Shown: positions 44,675-57,049 of the stretch, piece by piece
Position numbering within the stretch: the first letter of the stretch is position 1
Layout: each line of letters begins with the position of its first letter
Notes under the pieces: generated by a model
The model's input: the letters and a program-made list of their open reading frames with translations, nothing else
What the model was told of the DNA's origin: nothing
Databases searched by the model: none
Position numbers and translations under genes: made by a program
Virus record (IMG/VR): IMGVR_UViG_3300012983_000031
Location: 96,001 to 160,000 of that record
Direction: 5' to 3' (one strand)
DNA: 64,000 nt
From: a virus
Lineage: Duplodnaviria; Caudoviricetes

Positions 44675-44748
44675 CGCGGGGTGGAGCAGTTGGTAGCTCG
44701 CCAGGCTCATAACCTGGAGGTCGCAGGTTCGATTCCTGCCCACCGCAA
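44675..44748 (+). tRNA. tRNA-Met(CAT), initiator-like
   Basis: CGCGGGG start, CCAGG-CTCATAA-CCTGG, GGTTCGATTCC; C1 unpaired, irregular acceptor stem. Confidence 0.85.
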
Positions 44749-44757
44749 CTAAGATGC

Positions 44758-44830
44758 GCCTCAATAGCACAGTGGCTAGTGCAGCTGATTTGTAATCAGC
44801 AGGTCGTTGGTTCGAATCCGACTTGAGGCT
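44758..44830 (+). tRNA. tRNA-Thr(TGT)
   Basis: Cloverleaf; GCTGA-TTTGTAA-TCAGC. Confidence 0.93.
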
Positions 44831-45098
44831 CAAATCCAAACTACCGAATGAGGATAATAATAAATTCGGCTGATATAGACGAAACTATCAGATGTAGCAT
44901 TAGCATCGGTTACTGGAACGAGTGGTGATCGTAAACAGATTAATAAACGTATAAGCCTGATGTGAATAACACAAAAGTTAGACGTGGGTGCAGTTTATGT
45001 TTCAAGAAAACGCTGAAATTGAAAGTCGTAACCAGCGATGTTGGTTTAATCTACTGCCCAGAACAACAAGATAAAAACTCAATACGATATCAGCACAC

Positions 45099-45173
45099 GG
45101 GGGATTAGCTCAGTTTGGCTAGAGCACCTGCTTTGCACGCAGGGGGTCATCGGTTCGAGTCCGATATCCTCCA
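45099..45173 (+). tRNA. tRNA-Ala(TGC)
   Basis: Cloverleaf with G3:U70. Confidence 0.95.
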
Positions 45174-45219
45174 CAAAATATGACAGTTTAGAGAAATTGT
45201 TCATTAATTTATGCATCAG

Positions 45220-45293
45220 TGTGTATTAGTTCAGCTGGTTAGAATGCCTGCCTGTCACGCAGGAGGTCACGGGTTCGAGTCCCGTATGCACAG
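45220..45293 (+). tRNA. tRNA-Asp(GTC)
   Basis: CCTGC-CTGTCAC-GCAGG. Confidence 0.93.
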
Positions 45294-45352
45294 CAAATCT
45301 TTGTCATTTTTGCCTACCTCGAAAAAGAGGATGACTTTTTTGACAAGAATAT

Positions 45353-45500
45353 GGAAGACATACAGCAAAACTTTGAATAAACTTCCTAGATTCAATTTTG
45401 TTTAACTATGGCAAAAACTTTAGTCTTCTGATTATTTAAGGCACGCGTACAGCAAAAAAACTTTTATTTTCATTTTGGGATCAAAAAAGTTTGCGTGCTG
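45353..45500 (+). ncRNA. Two tandem copies of an unannotated stem-RTACAGCAAAA-stem structured element
   Basis: GGAAGAC/GTCTTCT and GGCACGC/GCGTGCT closing stems; third copy at 50532-50589. Confidence 0.55.
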
Positions 45501-45505
45501 TTTTT

Positions 45506-45579
45506 AGGGTAGTATTTCAGTTGGTTAGAATTCTGCATTTGGGATGCAGAGGTCGCACGTTCGAGTCGTGTCTACCCTA
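45506..45579 (+). tRNA. tRNA-Pro(TGG)
   Basis: CTGCA-TTTGGGA-TGCAG. Confidence 0.92.
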
Positions 45580-45586
45580 CTACATC

Positions 45587-45682
45587 GGAGGGATAAGCCT
45601 AATTGGTAAGGCAGTGGTCTTGAAAACCACCAGTAATCAACTAAGACTTGATGTGTCGGTTCGAGTCCGACTCCCTCCTCCA
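45587..45682 (+). tRNA. tRNA-Ser(TGA)
   Basis: Long variable arm, encoded CCA. Confidence 0.9.
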
Positions 45683-45687
45683 GGAGA

Positions 45688-45778
45688 GGTGGGTTACCCA
45701 AGTTGGTGAAGGGGGGACATTGCTAACGTCCTAGGTCAGCTAATACCTGGCGCGGGGGTTCGAGTCCCTCACCCACCG
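45688..45778 (+). tRNA. tRNA-Ser(GCT)
   Basis: GGACA-TTGCTAA-CGTCC, long variable arm. Confidence 0.88.
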
Positions 45779-45868
45779 CAACAAAATAACAAACATATGA
45801 TGAACTTCATAAAACATAAGAAACAATAGTTCATCCGTAACCAGATGAGTTATGGATGAATGATTTAT

Positions 45869-45941
45869 GTATCCATAGCTCAGTAGGTAGAGCAACAGAC
45901 CTTTAATCTGTGGGTCGAGAGTTCGAGTCTCTCTGGATACA
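45869..45941 (+). tRNA. tRNA-Lys(TTT) with non-canonical C33
   Basis: ACAGA-CCTTTAA-TCTGT. Confidence 0.88.
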
Positions 45942-45962
45942 CAAAAGACACTAATGTGAAGC

Positions 45963-46943
45963 ATGAACAAAAATTCTACAATTCGTTCAGCACAGGTAAC
46001 AAAGAATGATGAGTTCTATACACAAACAAAAGATATTGAAAAGGAACTCCAATACTATGTAAAACATTTCAATGGAAAAATTGTTCTATGCAATTGTAAC
46101 GATGCAACGCATGATGGGTTTGCAAAGTATTTCAGCGCAAATTTTGAAAAGCTAGGTCTTAAGGAACTTATCTGCACATCATTTTCAAAGGATGGGCATG
46201 GTAGGATATATAGATATTATGGAATAAAAAACGGAAACATTGTTCCTGATATAGATGAATTGGAACAAACAGAAATGGAAGGAAACGGAGGGTTCAATAC
46301 AATTGAAGGAATTGAACTCATAAAGAAATCTGATATTATCGTAACAAACCCGCCATTCTCACTGTTTAGAGAATTTATATCCATCCTGGAGAAGTACAAT
46401 AAAAAATATCTTATCATGTCAAACGGAAACGCAGTGACATATAACGATATATTTCCGTTAATAAAGGATAATAAAATGTGGTTGGGTTGCACCCTTTTTG
46501 TTGGTGAAATGCCATTCTTCAGGGTGAATAATGACACAGACGTATCAAAGGGTGAATATTATTATGATGATGACGGGAACTTATATAAACAAGTTAACAG
46601 CATTGCGTGGTTTACAAATCTTGATCACAATAAAAGGCATAAACAAATTGAATTGTATAAAAAATATAACCCTGATGAATATCAGAAATATGACAATTAT
46701 GATGCAATAAATGTTGGAAAGACAAAAAATATTCCTATGGATTACGATGGTGTGATGGGTGTACCTATTACATTTTTGTCAAAGTATTGTCCAGAACAAT
46801 TTGAAATAGTTGATTGCAGAAATTATACATCTAATGATCATTTGAAAAATAAACCGTCATTGCTGATTAAAGATTCAGCAAGCGCAATAAACGGTAAACC
46901 TGTATATGCAAGAATAGCGATTAAACGAATTCCGAATAAATAA
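45963..46943 (+). CDS. Adenine-specific methyltransferase, M.EcoRI-like family (orphan)
   Basis: KNDEFYT, VLCNCND, VTNPPFSLFREF, YDGVMGVPITF. Confidence 0.88.
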   Translation: MNKNSTIRSAQVTKNDEFYTQTKDIEKELQYYVKHFNGKIVLCNCNDATHDGFAKYFSANFEKLGLKELICTSFSKDGHGRIYRYYGIKNGNIVPDIDELEQTEMEGNGGFNTIEGIELIKKSDIIVTNPPFSLFREFISILEKYNKKYLIMSNGNAVTYNDIFPLIKDNKMWLGCTLFVGEMPFFRVNNDTDVSKGEYYYDDDGNLYKQVNSIAWFTNLDHNKRHKQIELYKKYNPDEYQKYDNYDAINVGKTKNIPMDYDGVMGVPITFLSKYCPEQFEIVDCRNYTSNDHLKNKPSLLIKDSASAINGKPVYARIAIKRIPNK

Positions 46944-47359: not shown

Positions 47360-47453
47360 GCAAAAAAAATAATCTAATGCTTATATAATGTACTAAACGA
47401 TAAAAATTTTTTCGTGTTTGAATTAATTTTTATCGTTTTTTCTTTTCTATGTC

Positions 47454-47480
47454 AAATAAAAGTTGTAACTTTGCAACATC
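47454..47480 (+). promoter_or_regulatory. Host-type promoter driving the TnpB/Cas12-like locus (TAACTTTG 47466-47473)
   Basis: AAATAAAAGTTGTAACTTTGCAAC. Confidence 0.8.
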
Positions 47481-47514
47481 AAACGAAATTAATAACTCAT
47501 AAATTAAAAAGAAT

Positions 47515-48789
47515 ATGGCTAATATCGCTGTCAAGTACAGAATATATCCTACCAAAGCACAAAGGAATTTTATTAATAAAAACATTGGTGCGAACAGATG
47601 GTTCTGGAACTATTGCATCGAGAAGAAGCAGAACGCTTATATTGAAAGCAAAAGAACAGGTGATAAAGCGTTGGCACGTATTGATGGTCAAACATTACGT
47701 GGTCATGTTAAAACATTAAAAGAAGAAGAAGAGACAAAATGGTTAAAGGATGTAAAGTTAAATTCCTTTAATTATGTTGTTGAACATTTTGATGAAGCAT
47801 ATAAAAGGTTTTTTGAAAAAAAAGCTGGAAAGCCAAAGAAGCATAAAAGAACAAGATCTGGCGCATTCACAACTCAAATTACTAAAGCTAGAAATATAGA
47901 AAATCTTATTGATTATAAGAATAATCGTATATATCTTGGTAAATTTATCAAAAACGAAAATGGTGAACCAGAACGTTTTGTAAAAGCCAAGATTCATAGA
48001 AAGGTTGATGGTACAATCATGAACATGACAATATCAAAAGATATTGATAATAGATACTATATATCTTTTTGTTTGAAGGTTGATGATTGGAAAAAGCCAA
48101 AGTCTCCAACATTAGATGGAACTATTGGTATAGATATGGGAATGTCAGAGGCTGGCGCTCTTTACGGATCTGATTTAAAAGTTAGATATGGATCTGATAA
48201 TATTGCTGGACTAACGGATAAAATAAACCGTATGGAAAGGCATTTAAAGAAATGGAGCAAAATAAAGTCAAAACGTTATAGCATTGAACGTAAGAAAAAA
48301 CGTACAGGGCAATCCAAAGGATATGTTGAAGCTGTTGAAAAATGTGCTGTTATACAATGCAAAATAAATCGTTTAAAATCTTATATAACTCATATGATGA
48401 CATCATCGATTGTGCATTGTGAGAATATTGATTCAATCGCAATAGAATCTTTGGATGTTAAAGAGATGATCGAGAAAAAGACAACAAACAATTTAAAAGA
48501 ACAAAAGGCTCGCAAGAGGAGAGCAAGAAGAAACCGCATCGTTCGTCTTGGCGAAATTTCCAGGCAACTTGAGTATAAAGCTGAAATAAATGGAAAGAAT
48601 TTTGTTAAAATTAATAAATGGTACCCATCTTCAAAAACATGTTCAGTGTGTGGATATAAAAATGATAATCTGAAATTAACTGACAGGTCTTGGGTTTGCC
48701 CTCACTGTCATACAGAACATCATAGAGATTTCAATGCTGCTGAAAATATTAAAAATGAAGGGTACAGGATGTTAACAAGTAAGAATTGA
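47515..48789 (+). CDS. tnpB: CRISPR-associated TnpB-like RNA-guided nuclease (miniature type V / Cas12-like effector)
   Basis: IS605 OrfB-type N-terminus (KYRIYPT...RWFWN), RuvC-I GIDMG (D207), RuvC-II IAIESL (E311), CSVCG/CPHC zinc finger, RuvC-III HRDFNAA (D405); adjacent to a CRISPR array. Confidence 0.92.
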   Translation: MANIAVKYRIYPTKAQRNFINKNIGANRWFWNYCIEKKQNAYIESKRTGDKALARIDGQTLRGHVKTLKEEEETKWLKDVKLNSFNYVVEHFDEAYKRFFEKKAGKPKKHKRTRSGAFTTQITKARNIENLIDYKNNRIYLGKFIKNENGEPERFVKAKIHRKVDGTIMNMTISKDIDNRYYISFCLKVDDWKKPKSPTLDGTIGIDMGMSEAGALYGSDLKVRYGSDNIAGLTDKINRMERHLKKWSKIKSKRYSIERKKKRTGQSKGYVEAVEKCAVIQCKINRLKSYITHMMTSSIVHCENIDSIAIESLDVKEMIEKKTTNNLKEQKARKRRARRNRIVRLGEISRQLEYKAEINGKNFVKINKWYPSSKTCSVCGYKNDNLKLTDRSWVCPHCHTEHHRDFNAAENIKNEGYRMLTSKN

Positions 48790-48799
48790 TCATAATATA

Positions 48800-49030
48800 A
48801 AACGTTGGTCGCGTTTCAGACCCTACCCGTGTGTAGCGGGAATGTAATGTCCGTGGACAGATTTGTCGATTTAATCGATTGAACTTTTGTTCAACAGTGG
48901 CGTTCTTGATACATTTGTAATCGTAGAATAGTTGCGGAATGTGATTTGAAGCGGAAAAAATGAAATGACATCGGTCATTTCACCAAGCAGAACGTAAGTT
49001 CTGTATACAATATTTCTCCATAGCTCTTTG
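48800..49030 (+). ncRNA. Putative tracrRNA / omega-RNA-derived scaffold
   Basis: Anti-repeat segments at 48915-48924 and 49008-49022; several hairpins, including a perfect 9-bp stem at 48961-48982. Confidence 0.6.
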
Positions 49031-49055
49031 ATATACACAATGTTATACAACATAA

Positions 49056-49532
49056 GCTGTTTATTATGGCGAAATGTTGGATGGTTACAACTTAAACCAC
49101 ATGAATGATGATGATCCAGCGCTGTTTATTATGGCGAAATGTTGGATGGTTACAACTACGGGACAGTTCAAGAGAATAAATGATGGCTGTTTATTATGGC
49201 GAAATGTTGGATGGTTACAACGATATTCATAAGGCTCCTTCCTGTTCTAAGCTGTTTATTGTGGCGAAATGTTGGATGGTTACAACCCTACGATCTTTAA
49301 GCCATCTTTCATTGATGCTGTTTATTGTGGCGAAATGTTGGATGGTTACAACAGACAGTTGCACCAGATGACTGTTTATTGTGGCGAAATGTTGGATGGT
49401 TACAACTAACCCATTCGCCTCCTTGATGACGAGCCAGCTGTTTATTATGGTGAAATGTTGGATGGTTACAACTAGGATTTCTCCCTTCAGATTCTTGCTG
49501 TTTATTGTGGCAAAATGTTGGATTGTTACAAC
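49056..49532 (+). CRISPR. CRISPR array, 8 repeats (36 nt) and 7 spacers
   Basis: Repeat GCTGTTTATTRTGGCGAAATGTTGGATGGTTACAAC at 49056, 49121, 49186, 49251, 49317, 49371, 49437, 49497; spacers 29, 29, 29, 30, 18, 30, 24 nt; repeats degenerate toward the distal end. Confidence 0.97.
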
Positions 49533-49576: not shown

Positions 49577-49888
49577 ATGGCAGCTATTCAAGAAATTTTT
49601 AATGCAGCGTTTTGGTACATGGCACCAATTCTTGTTGCGCTTTCTACAACTGTTACGGGTCTTGTGAATCAATGGTTCAAAATCCCTGATAAGTTTAAGC
49701 AACTTGCATCCTGGATTGTGGGCGCAGTTCTTTCCTGTGGAGCAATCTTCTTTGGATTCCTTGGTGAAAGCATAGGATGGCCAAGTTACATTGCGTTAAG
49801 CATCGTCGTGGGTCTATCATCAAATGGTATCTATGACATTGAAGCTATTAAGAAAATTATAGATTCATGGTTTAATAAGAAGAAATAA
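49577..49888 (+). CDS. Holin-like membrane protein
   Basis: Three TM helices, GLSSNGIYD motif, basic C-terminus. Confidence 0.65.
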   Translation: MAAIQEIFNAAFWYMAPILVALSTTVTGLVNQWFKIPDKFKQLASWIVGAVLSCGAIFFGFLGESIGWPSYIALSIVVGLSSNGIYDIEAIKKIIDSWFNKKK

Positions 49889-49909: not shown

Positions 49910-49946
49910 TCGATCCGTTGTCATCTTACAATGGGTCGATTTTTTT
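49910..49946 (+). terminator. Rho-independent terminator
   Basis: TCGATCCGTTGT/ACAATGGGTCGA plus T-tract. Confidence 0.75.
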
Positions 49947-50078
49947 ATTTTTTCGTTAAAATGTTTTTCTATGTCGAAAATAAGTTGTATCTTTGCAACG
50001 GAATTAAAAATAATTACAAAATGAATATCTCATATGTTCTTAGAGAGTTCAGATGTTACATTAATTGTAAGTTGAAAC

Positions 50079-50528
50079 ATGTTGGATATTGAGTTAACAA
50101 ATAAAACCTGCCAGGATTTTCTTGATCCTCAGCATGTGCATATGTTGCTGGATGCAGGTATTGACATGAGTGACGCTAAATATTGCGTTGTATCGCGTGA
50201 TGGAAAGCAATACGTTATGATGAAGGACAATGTTGATAAAACGCAATACAGCGAATGTTTGCCCACCTATTCGACCTCTGAGCTTTTATATAAGATTCCA
50301 GAATACCTATATATTGAAAAGAATGGGGAAGAATATTCAGGGGGATTCAAATTAAGCAAGGACGCTCCATTTTATCCAGCGTATTTTAGTTTACACAACA
50401 AAAATAAATCTATGTTTGATGAAAGCATACAGTGTTGTGCAGAGTATCCCATCCTGAGTCTTGCATATATATTGATACAATGTGTTAAACATGGTCATAA
50501 AATTGTGCAGGATATCAGTTCCAAATAA
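50079..50528 (+). CDS. Hypothetical protein
   Basis: 149-aa ORF after a host-type promoter (49988-49995). Confidence 0.7.
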   Translation: MLDIELTNKTCQDFLDPQHVHMLLDAGIDMSDAKYCVVSRDGKQYVMMKDNVDKTQYSECLPTYSTSELLYKIPEYLYIEKNGEEYSGGFKLSKDAPFYPAYFSLHNKNKSMFDESIQCCAEYPILSLAYILIQCVKHGHKIVQDISSK

Positions 50529-52701: not shown

Positions 52702-52775
52702 GCTCCAGTAGCTCAGTTGGTTAGAGCAACGGACTGTTAATCCGTGTGTCGGTGGTTCGAGCCCACCCTGGAGCG
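52702..52775 (+). tRNA. tRNA-Asn(GTT)
   Basis: ACGGA-CTGTTAA-TCCGT. Confidence 0.95.
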
Positions 52776-53078
52776 CAAAATAAGAAAAATAAGTAATTGT
52801 ACCACAGACCGCTGAAAGCAGTAAGGATTCCAAATTAGATAAATCAAATAGGTAGCCGTACTACCGAATTTACGCTTGTGGACTATCCAACTATGGATGA
52901 ACGTGGTTTACCACCTAAAAAGTAGTGATAGGTTGAAGCAAGAAATAAAATGTATGAGATTCATAGATTTTCATAGAATTTTATATACGGTAATATCATA
53001 TGTAAAGACTTACAGGCGTACAGCTATTAAGAGGAAATAAACGTTAAAGCGAGGTTGTTCCTTTATTTTTCTTATTAT

Positions 53079-53162
53079 GGCTTCATGGTGGAATGGTAGA
53101 CACGAGGGACTTAAAATCCCTTGGGCATTGCGCCCGTGCGGGTTCGAGTCCCGCTGAAGCTA
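53079..53162 (+). tRNA. tRNA-Leu(TAA)
   Basis: AGGGA-CTTAAAA-TCCCT, long variable arm. Confidence 0.94.
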
Positions 53163-53167
53163 CAACC

Positions 53168-53249
53168 GTTCCTGTGGCGGAATTGGTAGACGCGTCAGAC
53201 TTAGGATCTGATGTCTCATGACGTGCAGGTTCGAGTCCTGTCAGGAACA
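53168..53249 (+). tRNA. tRNA-Leu(TAG)
   Basis: TCAGA-CTTAGGA-TCTGA. Confidence 0.94.
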
Positions 53250-53254
53250 CAAAT

Positions 53255-53326
53255 TGCCCTGTAGTATAATTGGTAGTACAACAGATTTTGGTTCTGTCGG
53301 AACAGGTTCGAATCCTGTCAGGGTAA
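53255..53326 (+). tRNA. tRNA-Gln(TTG)
   Basis: ACAGA-TTTTGGT-TCTGT. Confidence 0.92.
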
Positions 53327-53350
53327 CAAGTAACAAACTTAAGCATAAAT

Positions 53351-53524
53351 ATGTTAAGACGTGATGAATTGATAGAACTTTCTGGACAGGTCATTAATGG
53401 CATGATGTCTGCTGACAATAACATATGGGTACAGTTGCTTGACAGAACTGTACACATTCAGGCAGCAAAGACAGCTGTAGCGATTGCAAATGACATGCTT
53501 AAGGAAATTGATAAGCTTGAATAA
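53351..53524 (+). CDS. Small hypothetical protein (57 aa) within the tRNA cluster
   Basis: MLRRDELIELSGQVINGMMSAD...AVAIANDMLKEIDKLE. Confidence 0.65.
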   Translation: MLRRDELIELSGQVINGMMSADNNIWVQLLDRTVHIQAAKTAVAIANDMLKEIDKLE

Positions 53525-53525
53525 T

Positions 53526-53600
53526 CTCTGGTTGGCTGAGTGGTCAAAGGCGACGGTCTGCAAAACCGTAAAACCAGCGGTTCGAATCCGCTACCAGAGT
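53526..53600 (+). tRNA. tRNA-Cys(GCA)
   Basis: ACGGT-CTGCAAA-ACCGT. Confidence 0.92.
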
Positions 53601-54179
53601 CTAATTATAGTTGACAAAATCAATGAGTAGTATTTCTCTGTTTGTTCCTTTGCTTATATTTTGTTTATTATTGAAGTAAGCGTAGATTCTTGGGAACCAA
53701 TCGTCAATTAATCTCGGTGCCATAACCGAAGAATACTTTCCTTCTTCCGATGGTTTGTGTTTGAATGAATAATCATTTTCATAATTATACAAATTATTGC
53801 CGCACCAAAACTTGATGTCTGGCAATTCTTTTTCTATTGCACTGCAAAAATTACGGAATCGTTCGACATTATTTGCAGTGTATTCTTTTTTTGTCCTTGC
53901 TTCGTGCAACACTCTGACGTAGCAGTCTTTCTTGTTGTTGATGTATTGAAGATCCTTTGCCATTTGTTTAGGTGTGTAGTCATACACATATTTTCCATGA
54001 GCGAACAATGTTTTACCGTCTTTGTCATATTTGACACGAAGATCGAAGCATCTTACTCCATATTTTTCATATTGTGTCTGGATGTCATAATCCTGACATT
54101 GAGCCATAAAGTGAAACAGATTCATCCACCATTTTTTACCTTTCAAATATGACCATGAATTGTGTGATCCGAGTATCAT
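53601..54179 (-). CDS. PI-PLC-like phosphodiesterase (truncated TIM-barrel type)
   Basis: GSHNS, AQCQ...IQTQ...GVRCFDLRV...HG X-domain motifs. Confidence 0.75.
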   Translation of the reverse strand: MILGSHNSWSYLKGKKWWMNLFHFMAQCQDYDIQTQYEKYGVRCFDLRVKYDKDGKTLFAHGKYVYDYTPKQMAKDLQYINNKKDCYVRVLHEARTKKEYTANNVERFRNFCSAIEKELPDIKFWCGNNLYNYENDYSFKHKPSEEGKYSSVMAPRLIDDWFPRIYAYFNNKQNISKGTNREILLIDFVNYN

Positions 54180-54420
54180 ATGTATATATTTTTTCTTTTA
54201 TTATATTTATATTAATAAATGATTATGAAAATATTAATAAAAATAATGTACAAAATGTATCTTAATATTTTTCATATTATCGTATTTTGTGTCACATATG
54301 TAGAAAATTAGATACAAAATTGTAACTTTTTCAAAACATTTCAGGAATTTGGAAACATAACAAGATAAATAAGGAAACGATGATCAGCGGGTAGAATATT
54401 AAACCAAAACGATAATCATT

Positions 54421-55230
54421 ATGAAAAAATTCTTTATCAGCGTGTTATGCTTCTTGTCATTCGGATTATATAATTCCGCAATGGCACAAAATTCTACGGT
54501 TGATCAGAAAATTCCAGATTTCAACAATAGTGGTAAGTACATCGGAAGTAAGAAGAACGGAAAGATGCATGGAAAGGGAACGTTCGAGTGGACAAATGGA
54601 GACAGATTTGAAGGAAATTTCCAGGACGGAAAGATTAACGGATATGGTCGTTATTCATGGGTAGATGGTGATGTGTATCAAGGAGACTTTAAGAATGGGG
54701 TTCAAGATGGATTTGGTTCAGCATTCTATGCTTCTCGTTGCAACACTTACGAAGGTGAGTGGAAGAATGGAAAGAGAAACGGTCATGGTAAGTTGACATG
54801 GGCGAACGGTGATGTTTACGAAGGTGAATGGATCGATGACGTTCGAGTTGGGGATGGTGTGTTCACGTCTGTAAATGGTGACAAGTATGTTGGTCATTAT
54901 GAAAATAATCAACGTAATGGTTACGGTACATATTATTATAATAATGGTGACGTTTATGTCGGTCAATGGATAAATGGAGAGAAAGAGGGTCTTGGCAAGT
55001 ACACTTATGCGAACGGCAACGTTTACGAAGGTCAGTTCTGCAATTCATACATAGAGGGTCAAGGAACTTTCATTTGGTCTTCAGGTGCAACTTACACAGG
55101 TCAGTTCAAAGAGGATATGCGAAATGGTGTAGGTACATACACTACTGCTGGAGGGAAAGTTATTTCTGGTAGCTGGAAAGACAATCGTTTTGCAGGTGAC
55201 AAGGGAAATATTGATGTGGCGATGAGATGA
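54421..55230 (+). CDS. Secreted MORN-repeat protein
   Basis: Signal peptide plus about 9 YxGxWxxGxxxGxG repeats. Confidence 0.9.
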   Translation: MKKFFISVLCFLSFGLYNSAMAQNSTVDQKIPDFNNSGKYIGSKKNGKMHGKGTFEWTNGDRFEGNFQDGKINGYGRYSWVDGDVYQGDFKNGVQDGFGSAFYASRCNTYEGEWKNGKRNGHGKLTWANGDVYEGEWIDDVRVGDGVFTSVNGDKYVGHYENNQRNGYGTYYYNNGDVYVGQWINGEKEGLGKYTYANGNVYEGQFCNSYIEGQGTFIWSSGATYTGQFKEDMRNGVGTYTTAGGKVISGSWKDNRFAGDKGNIDVAMR

Positions 55231-55284
55231 ATAATATAATTATTCAGATAAATAGCTGTAAAGATTAATTCAAAAGATAAAAAG

Positions 55285-56568
55285 ATGAAAAAATTATTTT
55301 ACTTGCTGTTTGTTTTTTGCTTTGTTGTGTCTTGCCAGGACTATGATTATTACACTGACGAGTACAAGAGCAACGGTATTGAATACGAGAATGTTTTCAG
55401 AAGTTATGTTGGCGGCGATGTCGCTCCCGATCAGACATGGGGATTTGGTTCAAAAGATGTTGGTACGAGAAGCACATATCCTAATTCAAACATGTGGGAA
55501 GATGAAGGATATGTAGTTCCTGATCCCATCACAGATGCTGAGGTTGAAAAGGTAAAGGCTGTGTTCGCAGAGAAGATGCCAGAAGGTTATGTGTGTGAAA
55601 GCCTTGTTGACTGGGATAGTTTCTTTGTTCAGCATGTTTACAAGGGTGATTCCATATATAAGAACGGATACAACCAGGATGTTGTTGGTTCTGATCATAT
55701 GGATTGGCTGTGTTCATATTCTGACAAGGAACGCCAGATTATATCATATTATCCATATGAGGATAGGCTTGTTAATGTGGAAGGATATGACGACCACATC
55801 TACAATTTCAACGCGGCGTTCGGCTCCATACAGTTGATGTATGATACAACAACAAAGAGATTCGGTTTCCACAATTCAGAGGACAGTAAGATACATTACA
55901 ATTTCAGGATGGTTGAAATTGATGGCGCGTATTATGTTGGCTTTGATTTTGAGGGAGATTTAATGGTTCCTTGGGGCGAGAACCTTAATTCTGACGTTCC
56001 AAGAGACTATGTGTTCGATGATTGGATTGTAAAAATATGTCCAGGAAAGGGTGACGGCGGAAACAAAAAGAAAGATGAAGACAAATATTGCAGGATAATT
56101 GTAGAAGATCTTGTTGCAACAAATAATCTTGAACACTTAACGGAATCGGATTGGGATTACAATGATGTTGTATTTGATGCATATATTGAAGATGGAGTTG
56201 CTCATATTAGAGTTGTCGCAGCAGGAGGTACTCTTCCTTTATATGTTGCTGAAAGAGAAGTTCATGATTTGTTTGGTCTTTCACAACGTCTTCCTGTTAA
56301 CGTTGGCACTGGATTGGATCTCGATCCTGTTGAATTCACAATAAATGTTCCGTTCACTGACATCAACATGATACCAGTTGTTGTTTACAACAATGGAACA
56401 GGATACGAACTCCTTTCAAAGATGGGGCAGGCTCCAGCAAAGATTTGCGTAGGAACAGATTATCAATGGTGCAAGGAACATCAGCACATAAAGAGCAAGT
56501 ATCCTAAGTTCGTTGAGTGGGCTACACAAAACCCAAAGGATTACGAAGACGGTTATTGGTACAAATAA
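55285..56568 (+). CDS. Bacteroidota-type lipoprotein with DUF4842/LruC-like C-terminal region
   Basis: VVS-C lipobox; IVEDL...DWDYNDVVF...AAGGTLP. Confidence 0.7.
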   Translation: MKKLFYLLFVFCFVVSCQDYDYYTDEYKSNGIEYENVFRSYVGGDVAPDQTWGFGSKDVGTRSTYPNSNMWEDEGYVVPDPITDAEVEKVKAVFAEKMPEGYVCESLVDWDSFFVQHVYKGDSIYKNGYNQDVVGSDHMDWLCSYSDKERQIISYYPYEDRLVNVEGYDDHIYNFNAAFGSIQLMYDTTTKRFGFHNSEDSKIHYNFRMVEIDGAYYVGFDFEGDLMVPWGENLNSDVPRDYVFDDWIVKICPGKGDGGNKKKDEDKYCRIIVEDLVATNNLEHLTESDWDYNDVVFDAYIEDGVAHIRVVAAGGTLPLYVAEREVHDLFGLSQRLPVNVGTGLDLDPVEFTINVPFTDINMIPVVVYNNGTGYELLSKMGQAPAKICVGTDYQWCKEHQHIKSKYPKFVEWATQNPKDYEDGYWYK

Positions 56569-56592
56569 ATGACAACAAATTATATTACTTTT

Positions 56593-56624
56593 GAAGGTTT
56601 TTAGAAATAGAAACCTTCTTTTTT
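56593..56624 (+). terminator. Rho-independent terminator
   Basis: GAAGGTTTTTA/TAGAAACCTTC plus T-tract. Confidence 0.65.
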
Positions 56625-56685
56625 ACATTTTTAACATAATTTTTTTTGTTATTTAAAATAAAAGTTGTAACTTTGCAACATCAAT

Positions 56686-56758
56686 GCAGCAATAGCTCAT
56701 CTGGCAGAGCGTCAGGCTTCCATCCTGAAGGTGGTGAGTTCGATCCTCACTTGCTGCT
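56686..56758 (+). tRNA. tRNA-Gly(TCC)
   Basis: TCAGG-CTTCCAT-CCTGA; directly after a host-type promoter (56668-56675). Confidence 0.9.
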
Positions 56759-56954
56759 CAAACAACATTAGGCTCATCATAGTTTGGCTTTAGGATAAGC
56801 GCGGTTGAGGATTTGATCACCTTGGCGACGTTGTGCTGACACCGATGGCGAATTAAGATAAGAATTGTAACACTACGAGACGGCTCTGTGAGTGTCTGAC
56901 ATGATAGGTTACGCCTGCAGGAATTCTGATTTTGATTATATGTGAGTCTAATTC

Positions 56955-57028
56955 GCTCTCTTAGCTCAGTTGAATAGAGCAACAGATTTCTAATCTGTGG
57001 GTCGAGGGTTTGAATCCCTCAGAGAGTA
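56955..57028 (+). tRNA. tRNA-Arg(TCT)
   Basis: ACAGA-TTTCTAA-TCTGT. Confidence 0.9.
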
Positions 57029-57049
57029 CTATTTTAAAATCAAAACATT

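Follow-up and report, generated by a model that had tools for sequence, protein, structure and literature searches.

A phage-borne TnpB linked to a CRISPR array and to an omegaRNA-like scaffold: a probable miniature type V system, tracrRNA-dependent and of the TranC / V-U kind

Introduction

Does a TnpB protein whose gene is followed, in a phage genome, by a CRISPR (clustered regularly interspaced short palindromic repeats) array simply adjoin that array, or does it take its guides from it? The question is raised by a 64,000-nucleotide (nt) stretch of DNA, hereafter the window, which comprises bases 96001-160000 of the 220,295-bp IMG/VR virus record IMGVR_UViG_3300012983_000031, a record judged to be about 60% complete. 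Genes for tail sheath, baseplate wedge, large terminase, DNA polymerase, helicase and NAD-dependent ligase, recognised in the window with PHROGs, are those of a tailed phage, and the carrier is a large Bacteroidota phage of the gut or rumen. On the plus strand a gene for a TnpB-family protein of 424 amino acids (aa) occupies positions 47515..48789 and is followed by an array of eight repeats. An earlier note, made from the window alone, had taken the pair for a domesticated TnpB that had exchanged its single omegaRNA guide for multiple CRISPR RNAs (crRNAs), and for a candidate new type V lineage. From comparison of sequences and predicted folds we conclude that the phage probably carries here a miniature CRISPR-like system of type V which derives from TnpB, is of the TranC (transposon-CRISPR intermediate) or V-U kind and would depend on a trans-activating crRNA (tracrRNA).

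Linkage of gene and array

A word-indexed protein search returned 1,948 relatives of the effector, and the DNA around the closest ones was read. In what follows W denotes the window protein, L-numbers denote homologue loci and P-numbers homologue proteins, and identities are those to W. All 15 lineages that could be read, spanning 34-98% identity, combine tnpB with a conserved scaffold of ~200-270 nt and an array of 36-nt repeats, and they are found at W, L009, L011/12, L014, L097/98, L099-101, L103, L104-L109, L133, L266 and L267. The sister strain L009 (98% identity) has nine repeats in a layout as in the window, and it is followed by L011/L012 (P0002; 45%, six repeats), L014 (P0004; 44%, 13 repeats), L097/L098 (P0008; 39%, eight repeats), L099-L101 (P0007; 37%, at least three repeats), L266 on a 380.8-kb contig and L267 (37% each, four-repeat arrays), six Joint Genome Institute (JGI) metagenome contigs, L104-L109 (34-40%, with arrays), and L133 (34%, seven repeats). 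The repeats of the clade are all 36 nt long and end A(C/T)ACAAC, or TGCAAC in L108. An apparent exception is P0009 (L103), in which the scaffold and a two-repeat mini-array are found upstream, not downstream, of the gene.

Outside this group the arrangement was not encountered. The outgroup scan covered 80 IMG/VR loci (at most 34% identity), 80 JGI metagenome loci and 80 loci from 185,579 species genomes (at most 34%), and in none of these 3 x 80 loci does an array directly follow the gene, besides the clade members L104-L109 and L133 among the JGI loci. The scanned loci that do not belong to the clade are all at most 35% identical to W, and those from genomes are often multicopy. In a FastTree phylogeny of 147 distinct TnpBs the array-linked proteins form one clade with a Shimodaira-Hasegawa (SH)-like support of 99, or 93 with L133, the array label changes just three times on the tree, and the 'no array' calls within the clade are all accounted for by truncated contigs or by L103. 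The idea of the earlier note that a TnpB has been domesticated, outside a transposon, in association with an array of several spacers is supported, since the association persists throughout one monophyletic clade. The more distant relatives (at most 34%) have no adjoining array.

The clade was found on phage-like metagenome contigs only, where genes for gp25 baseplate protein, RtcB, RNA ligase, NADAR and radical-SAM proteins are its neighbours, and it was not found in the 185,579 cellular species genomes. Two members reside on contigs of 380,806 bp (L266) and 392,833 bp (P0025), and since contigs of 380-393 kb match the ~370 kb implied for the window's phage (220 kb at 60% completeness), the carriers appear to be jumbo phages of similar size. 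Being kept in all 15 lineages and confined to one supported clade, the gene-array link is not a matter of chance.

Scaffold RNA and anti-repeat

The gap of 266 nt between the stop codon, which ends at 48789, and the first repeat, which begins at 49056, is non-coding. It holds what we describe, on the grounds of conservation, covariation and alignment with omegaRNA, as a tracrRNA-like, omegaRNA-derived scaffold RNA (48811..49055, plus strand). Its conserved 5' motif CCCTACCCGTGTGTAGCGGG lies at 48821-48840; the motif CCCTACCCnGTGTAnCGGG is present in every lineage 8-76 nt past the tnpB stop codon (32 nt in the window), and from there to the first repeat the distance is constant, 195-201 nt for most lineages and 235-269 nt for the window's subclade. 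The scaffolds of 11 lineages align with many invariant blocks. For eight equally long scaffolds RNAalifold predicts 24 pairs, of which 11 show compensatory changes; for an 11-sequence MAFFT alignment, in which the hairpins are misaligned, it predicts only five. The window scaffold folds with a z-score of -2.5, and Rfam has no family for it.

The feature that suggests a tracrRNA is found in the last 70 nt before the array, where part of each scaffold is complementary to the repeat of its own lineage, over the 5' two thirds of that repeat. The core of this anti-repeat in the window, CAATATTTCTCCATAG (49008..49023, plus strand), pairs with repeat nucleotides 9-24 (15 pairs and one mismatch with RNAduplex), and the same pairing appears in the minimum free energy and centroid folds. 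When duplex energies were computed for all 12 x 12 combinations of anti-repeat and repeat, the cognate repeat was the best partner in eight of the 12 lineages, where about one would be expected by chance; we estimate a binomial p of ~1e-6 for this excess, with a chance of 1/12 per lineage. For a putative pseudoknot between GTTACA of the repeat and TGTAAT of the scaffold (48843-48848), a hand check of the alignments finds the pairs in some lineages only, namely in W, L106/L108-type scaffolds and L014, and also in the insertion sequence (IS) described below.

Moreover, the RNA module is not bound to its place behind the gene. At L011 a 100-aa DUF7352 gene has been inserted between tnpB and the scaffold (L011:6334-6990), and the scaffold has a TAnnTTTG-type promoter word of its own (TGTACCTTTGCATTG) about 30 nt upstream; a promoter word of this type is likewise found just upstream of the scaffold at L014. 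At L103 the scaffold and the mini-array (L103:592-902) lie 3.1 kb upstream of tnpB (L103:4001-5203), with three unrelated genes between the RNA module and tnpB. Since the module is detached at L011 and L103 it can act as a separate gene, which fits a trans-acting tracrRNA.

Descent from an IS omegaRNA

An indication of where the scaffold comes from is given by four copies of one TnpB IS (L194, L198, L200, L201) on the 87-kb Porphyromonadaceae contig CAMEGQ010000001.1, the TnpB of which is 30-31% identical to the effector. The omegaRNA of this IS has the 5' motif of the phage scaffold at the gene end, together with the internal blocks of that scaffold, and it ends …CTTAGCGGTAGTTGAC (…GGTAGTTGAC) exactly where the four copies diverge, that is, at the start of the guide. 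The phage repeats have ends of the same kind (GGTAGTTACAAC in L103, GGATGGTTACAAC in the window), and on the coding strand each spacer follows its repeat on the 3' side, in the place that the guide has in an omegaRNA. Since the phage repeats end like the IS omegaRNA, the repeat 3' end would be the former guide-adjacent end of an omegaRNA, and the stem formed by anti-repeat and repeat would be an addition that has since been split.

The comparison of sequences thus lends strong support to the view that the scaffold is a homologue of the IS omegaRNA, that the RNA has gained a long stem before its guide-adjacent end (…GGTTACAAC), and that the 5' strand of this stem (the anti-repeat, 49008-49023) stays on the scaffold and the 3' strand makes up the first ~26 nt of the repeat. 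The switch from omegaRNA to crRNA that the earlier note had envisaged is borne out computationally, the intergenic RNA being an omegaRNA derivative with a 3' end complementary to its own repeat, and the Porphyromonadaceae IS offers a useful 'before' state for the splitting of the guide RNA.

The array and its spacers

A repeat search of the window places the array at 49056..49532 on the plus strand, with eight repeats of 36 nt ending GGTTACAAC (consensus GCTGTTTATTRTGGCGAAATGTTGGATGGTTACAAC) and seven spacers. The repeats are 85-100% identical, the terminal one being degenerate, and the spacers are mutually unrelated, as in a CRISPR array. The number of repeats and their position 266 nt behind the gene had been given correctly before, and a small correction concerns the spacers, which are of irregular length (29, 29, 29, 30, 18, 30 and 24 nt, hence 18-30 nt). 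The 220-kb record contains one array and one scaffold, and no extra scattered copies of the scaffold or of a mini-array were found in it.

The array turns over, since two strains with effectors 98% identical, those of the window and L009, have just two spacers in common, out of seven and eight respectively. The shared pair, spacers 4 and 5, is flanked by unique spacers on both sides. Similarly, L099/L100 and L101 encode an identical protein and have different arrays. Some 90 spacers were seen across the clade as a whole. As the earlier note had stated for the window, genes for adaptation and transposition are missing: in the whole record, about 60% complete, there is no match to Cas1, Cas2 or Cas4 and nothing above the cut-off for Y1 TnpA. 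New spacers may then be supplied in trans by adaptation proteins of the host, or arrays may recombine with one another.

Two of the homologous arrays deserve separate mention. The L014 array (L014:3211-4028) mixes two repeat variants, …AAAGGCCTGACTTTGTTGGGTTGACACAAC and …AGACACCTTCATTTGTGGGGTTGTCACAAC, and a second, longer gene with a TNB domain (L014:7206-7866) begins 3 kb downstream, so that two effectors may share or split one array. The L133 repeat, GGTGTGAGTGATCCACAAATGAAAGGTAATCACAAC (L133:4255-4686), has an end like that of Bacteroidota Cas13b direct repeats (…GGTAATCACAAC), a likeness that may point to adaptation machinery in common or be without significance.

The effector protein

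That the protein is a full IS605-type TnpB, as had been claimed, is confirmed. It has the Pfam domains HTH_OrfB_IS605 (PF12323, residues 1-46) and Cas12f1-like_TNB (PF07282, residues 347-412), and the NCBIfam model guided_TnpB (NF040570) scores it at 216 bits against a cut-off of 100. The RuvC triad D207, E311 and D405 is invariant in alignments of 15 and of 52 homologues and lines up with the motifs of RuvC in a PDB chain of a TnpB like that of ISDra2; a CxxC…CxxC zinc ribbon is present, and the C-terminus follows directly after RuvC-III. The best natural PDB chain by sequence is ISDra2 TnpB (E 7e-31, residues 3-416). An AlphaFold2 (AF2) model built with 52 aligned homologues has a mean predicted local distance difference test score (pLDDT) of 86 and a predicted template modelling score (pTM) of 0.79, and Foldseek ranks ISDra2 TnpB (8h1j; template modelling (TM) scores 0.65/0.74) and ISFba1 TnpB (8iaz; 0.71/0.77) first, with all Cas12f, Cas12m and LaTranC chains below these two. 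The gene is the single tnpB copy in the 220-kb record and its position is syntenic in L009. There is thus strong support for the effector, a predicted RNA-guided nuclease, being a TnpB of the IS605 type that has kept its RuvC site intact and is single-copy, transposase-free and fixed in a phage cassette.

The unusual basic insertion after E311 to which the earlier note had drawn attention is real when compared with most relatives; it is however not unique to the window protein. The codons of KEQKARKRRARRNR (~residues 327-340) lie at 48493..48534 on the plus strand, between RuvC-II and the zinc ribbon, and in the alignment the ~15-residue insert that holds this stretch is present in W, L011, L014 and L133 only, with a different sequence in L133; the other clade members and the outgroups are without it. 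AF2 models the insert as a helix (residues 327-343, pLDDT 65-83). In the subclade of W, L011 and L014 the scaffold has additional hairpins and is 35-70 nt longer than in other lineages, and because this subclade has both the insert and the longer scaffold, the sequences suggest that the two grew together. The enlarged bridge helix of TranC clade 3 (bioRxiv 10.64898/2026.03.27.714800) is a precedent of sorts for such an insert.

Comparison with known systems

By sequence and fold the effector is a TnpB; by its context it lacks the mobility and the single guide of an IS protein and has the features of TranC and V-U systems. With the TnpB of IS200/IS605 elements (ISDra2, 8h1j / 8exa) it shares full-length similarity in sequence and fold, the DED triad and the zinc ribbon, and the scaffold, like the omegaRNA of such elements, begins at the 3' end of the gene, has the same motif and is followed 3' by the guide. 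It differs in having neither a transposase nor multicopy spread and in being fixed in a phage cassette, in having several guides in a repeat-spacer array instead of one guide in the right-end flank, in the added stem of anti-repeat and repeat and, in the window subclade, in the ~15-residue basic insert after RuvC-II.

TranC systems were introduced by Jin et al. (Cell 2025, doi 10.1016/j.cell.2025.09.004), as summarised in PMC13565253, and their clades comprise effectors of 300-600 aa (bioRxiv 10.1101/2025.09.28.678669). The likeness, as judged from published descriptions of TranC clades, consists of a TnpB-sized effector nested among TnpBs, an omegaRNA split into tracrRNA and crRNA, and a short downstream array without cas1 and cas2 (here none in the ~60%-complete record). 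The closest parallel in context is CauTranC9, an active system from a Caudoviricetes genome with a clade mean of 414 aa, a 38-bp repeat, five repeats and spacers that match phages (bioRxiv 10.64898/2026.03.27.714800). CauTranC9 is without the C-terminal tail of ISDra2 and without enlarged REC/WED domains, and the window effector likewise ends after RuvC-III. Differences are that repeats of 38 nt are reported for TranC clade 9 as against 36 nt here, that the window clade consists of at least 15 lineages of ~370-390-kb Bacteroidota jumbo phages, and that in two of its lineages the RNA module is detached from the gene. Since LaTranC matches only the C-terminal third of the effector (E 8e-14), the effector does not belong to the LaTranC clade.

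Among the V-U systems 40 candidate groups of TnpB-like proteins with arrays, V-U6 to V-U45, have been described, and these, like Cas12f and Cas12n, share with the window locus a short downstream array, the absence of adaptation genes and an independent origin from TnpB (PMC10691335). The PADLOC profiles for Cas12u4 (153 bits) and Cas12f (~150 bits) do match the effector, but the TnpB profile scores higher (216 bits). Cas12f structures reach TM scores by target of 0.45-0.68 with Foldseek as opposed to 0.74-0.79 for TnpB structures, and PDB Cas12f chains match with E 3e-4 to 1e-3 in the zinc ribbon only. As these fold and profile matches are weaker than those to TnpB, and as the enlarged N-terminal lobes of Cas12f and Cas12n are missing, the effector is not a Cas12f. 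RdCas12n (9j09) matches it with E 2e-20 over residues 130-422 only. Cas12n proteins are ~400-700 aa long with an unstructured C-terminal tail encoding part of the tracrRNA, and membership of this group is unlikely. Finally, a pair of TnpBs encoded by viruses near arrays, 401 and 433 aa long and complete in their RuvC motifs, have been reported from landfill viromes in a study that also proposes that phages carry intermediates between TnpB and type V (PMC12607003); unlike the present clade they were published without RNA analysis, clade definition or test of conservation. The phrase 'candidate new type V lineage' can therefore not be upheld as written, since V-U6 to V-U45, TranC and CauTranC9 are already in the literature: the kind of system is known, including one phage example, and the window locus is a new member of it, its clade being possibly a new one.

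Proposed mechanism and alternative explanations

If the locus works as a system of the TranC / V-U kind, tnpB, scaffold and array would be co-transcribed from the cassette promoter at 47460, and the scaffold would be cut out of the transcript either by host RNases or by TnpB, which processes its own mRNA (PMC10278001). Scaffold, repeat 1 and spacer 1 would then act as a natural single guide, and scaffold set free would serve the later repeat-spacer units as a tracrRNA, by pairing with them in trans. The resulting ribonucleoprotein would make a double-strand cut in DNA that has a short transposon-associated or protospacer-adjacent motif (TAM/PAM) 5' of the spacer match. The same model of 'functional RNA splitting' has been published for TranC (PMC13565253; bioRxiv 10.64898/2026.03.27.714800). 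The likely role, and our default reading, is that during infection it interferes with phages that compete or with other mobile DNA.

Several observations weigh against such a working system. In four of the 12 lineages the anti-repeat pairs better with a foreign repeat than with its cognate one (which ranks 2, 3, 6 and 8), and on hand check of the alignments the pseudoknot between repeat and scaffold fails in the L097, L101, L103 group. Spacer lengths of 15-35 nt across the clade (mode 29-30) are unusual for products of Cas1-Cas2 and could mean partial decay. Adaptation genes may lie in the ~40% of the phage genome absent from the record. Furthermore, the searches for protospacers found no credible target. 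Spacers of W, L009, L011 and L014 matched only the arrays themselves when compared with the 220 kb of the window's phage and with related loci, a search of 50,697 phage records with the arrays of W, L014 and L009, at E values of up to 1, gave no credible protospacer, and spacers 4, 6 and 3 had no exact match in IMG/VR. The repeat word likewise gave no match in IMG/VR, nor did the 2.5-kb locus in the phage collection, and BLAST of the window array against 401 genomes from the family to which a Prevotella metagenome-assembled genome (MAG) belongs yielded neither a credible target nor a similar repeat. Two candidate matches were set aside: a 25-nt match in MT835625 (E 0.5), judged to be chance, consists of 7 nt of repeat and, with one mismatch, 18 nt of spacer 3, and a 22-nt match across a spacer-repeat junction (E 6.6e-4 per genome) is what chance gives over 401 genomes.

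A serious alternative, though in our judgement an unlikely one, is that the nuclease serves homing or marker exclusion and not immunity, cutting related phages that lack the cassette or carry rival alleles in mixed infections; the device would then drive its own inheritance, much as TnpB secures the retention of its IS. The ancestral role of TnpB is indeed selfish retention by way of guided cleavage and recombination (bioRxiv 10.1101/2023.03.14.532601), the spacers have a G+C content of 0.35-0.44, near that of phage loci, and the confinement of the clade to phage-like contigs, with none in 185,579 species genomes, is in agreement with it. Against it, the spacers match neither the related phage loci compared nor the phage's own 220 kb.

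It is also conceivable, although we hold it to be quite improbable, that the clade is a strictly phage-borne lineage in which the guide RNA of a TnpB became an array whose spacers are renewed without a Cas1-Cas2 of its own. Renewal would in that case proceed through host adaptation proteins that recognise the omegaRNA-derived repeat, or through recombination or a TnpB-dependent mechanism. This explanation draws its plausibility from the fast turnover at 98% identity, from the irregular spacers and from the absence of the clade from the 185,579 genomes, and if true it would make jumbo phages a birthplace of new type V systems.

The notion that the RNA still acts as an omegaRNA in cis only, with guidance by scaffold, repeat 1 and spacer 1 alone and with the later units as functionless tandem duplications of a right end, stems from the observations that the scaffold continues into repeat 1, that anti-repeat and repeat 1 fold as one hairpin, and that the arrays are short (2-13 repeats), in some cases decayed (L099), and irregular in their spacer lengths. 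Functionless duplications would however hardly be expected to keep internal repeats near-identical between unrelated spacers, with degeneration of the terminal repeat alone, nor to vary in spacer content along the whole array between strains 98% identical; arrays are moreover kept in all 15 lineages read, and split guides are known from published TranC systems (PMC13565253; bioRxiv 10.64898/2026.03.27.714800). We therefore regard guidance in cis only as very unlikely.

Highly improbable is a hijacked array, in which the repeats and spacers would yield crRNAs for a Cas effector of the host, or a decoy of it, and TnpB would merely adjoin. The format of 36-nt repeats and ~30-nt spacers is common in Bacteroidota class 2 systems, the phage record has no adaptation genes, and the repeat ends resemble Cas13b direct repeats. 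Yet the anti-repeat of the TnpB-linked scaffold co-varies with the repeat, repeat and omegaRNA have homologous 3' ends, and no similar repeat was seen in the 401 genomes mentioned above or, as a repeat word, in IMG/VR. The possibility of an orphan array of Cas13b-like or type II-C-like nature, suggested by repeat motifs, is likewise outweighed by the co-variation of the scaffold and is at most a lead. Lastly, the possibility that an ordinary IS200/IS605 TnpB was inserted beside an unrelated orphan array is negligible, for although every profile calls the protein a TnpB and TnpBs are common in phage contigs, it is refuted by the comparative data on the 15 lineages, in which the link is kept across 34-98% identity and in one clade only, and it also disagrees with the lack of TnpA, the single copy and the synteny in the sister strain.

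Genomic setting

A putative Bacteroidota-type promoter (…AAGTTGTAACTTTGCAAC) at 47443..47477 on the plus strand, 37 nt before the ATG of tnpB, is the recurrent cassette promoter of the phage. Its promoter word AAGTTGTAnCTTTGCAAC (47460-47477) has 11 copies on the plus strand of the window where 0.33 are expected, which vindicates the description 'the phage's standard promoter' in the earlier note, and the stretch 47443-47477 recurs as a direct repeat at 49965-49999. A promoter function is suggested by the TAnnTTTG consensus. On the minus strand at 49076-49093 the reverse complement of the 3' half of the repeat (AAGTTGTAACCATCCAAC) resembles the promoter word AAGTTGTAACTTTGCAAC, with the TTTG core replaced, which is likely a coincidence.

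The earlier description of the cassette requires a small addition, in that an open reading frame (ORF) for a 103-aa holin-like membrane protein (49577..49888, plus strand; phrog_1299 holin, E 5e-7) shares it from promoter to terminator. Between the array and this ORF there is no promoter word, and the sole terminator-like site of the region, a hairpin at 49910-49939, is found downstream of the ORF. With one promoter word and a terminator only after the ORF, tnpB, the non-coding stretch, the array and the holin-like ORF would form one cassette, and for the same reasons the array may be part of the mRNA leader of a lysis gene. The holin-like ORF itself is probably not part of the CRISPR-like system.

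The surroundings of the cassette can be described briefly. Fifteen tRNA genes flank the tnpB locus in two clusters (window 44676-45942 and 52702-57029), and directly upstream of the locus lies a gene for an EcoRI-type adenine methyltransferase (45963-46943, Pfam E 7e-115). The sequence TACAGCAAAA is present three times in the window, twice between tRNA genes (45361 and 45448) and once after the ORF at 50079-50528 (50540).

Conclusions

The locus opens no new category or principle; it is good comparative material and a source of candidates for compact editors. With effectors of 383-438 aa and intact catalytic sites, members of the clade are candidates for very compact genome editors, and the boundaries of scaffold and repeat given here suffice for a first guide design. 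The clade furthermore displays stages of the passage from transposon to CRISPR side by side, from a mobile IS relative with the same omegaRNA, through phage copies in which the scaffold is fused to an array, to copies in which the RNA module is a separate gene with its own promoter. It also sharpens a question that concerns all type V systems without cas1, namely how their arrays change so fast.

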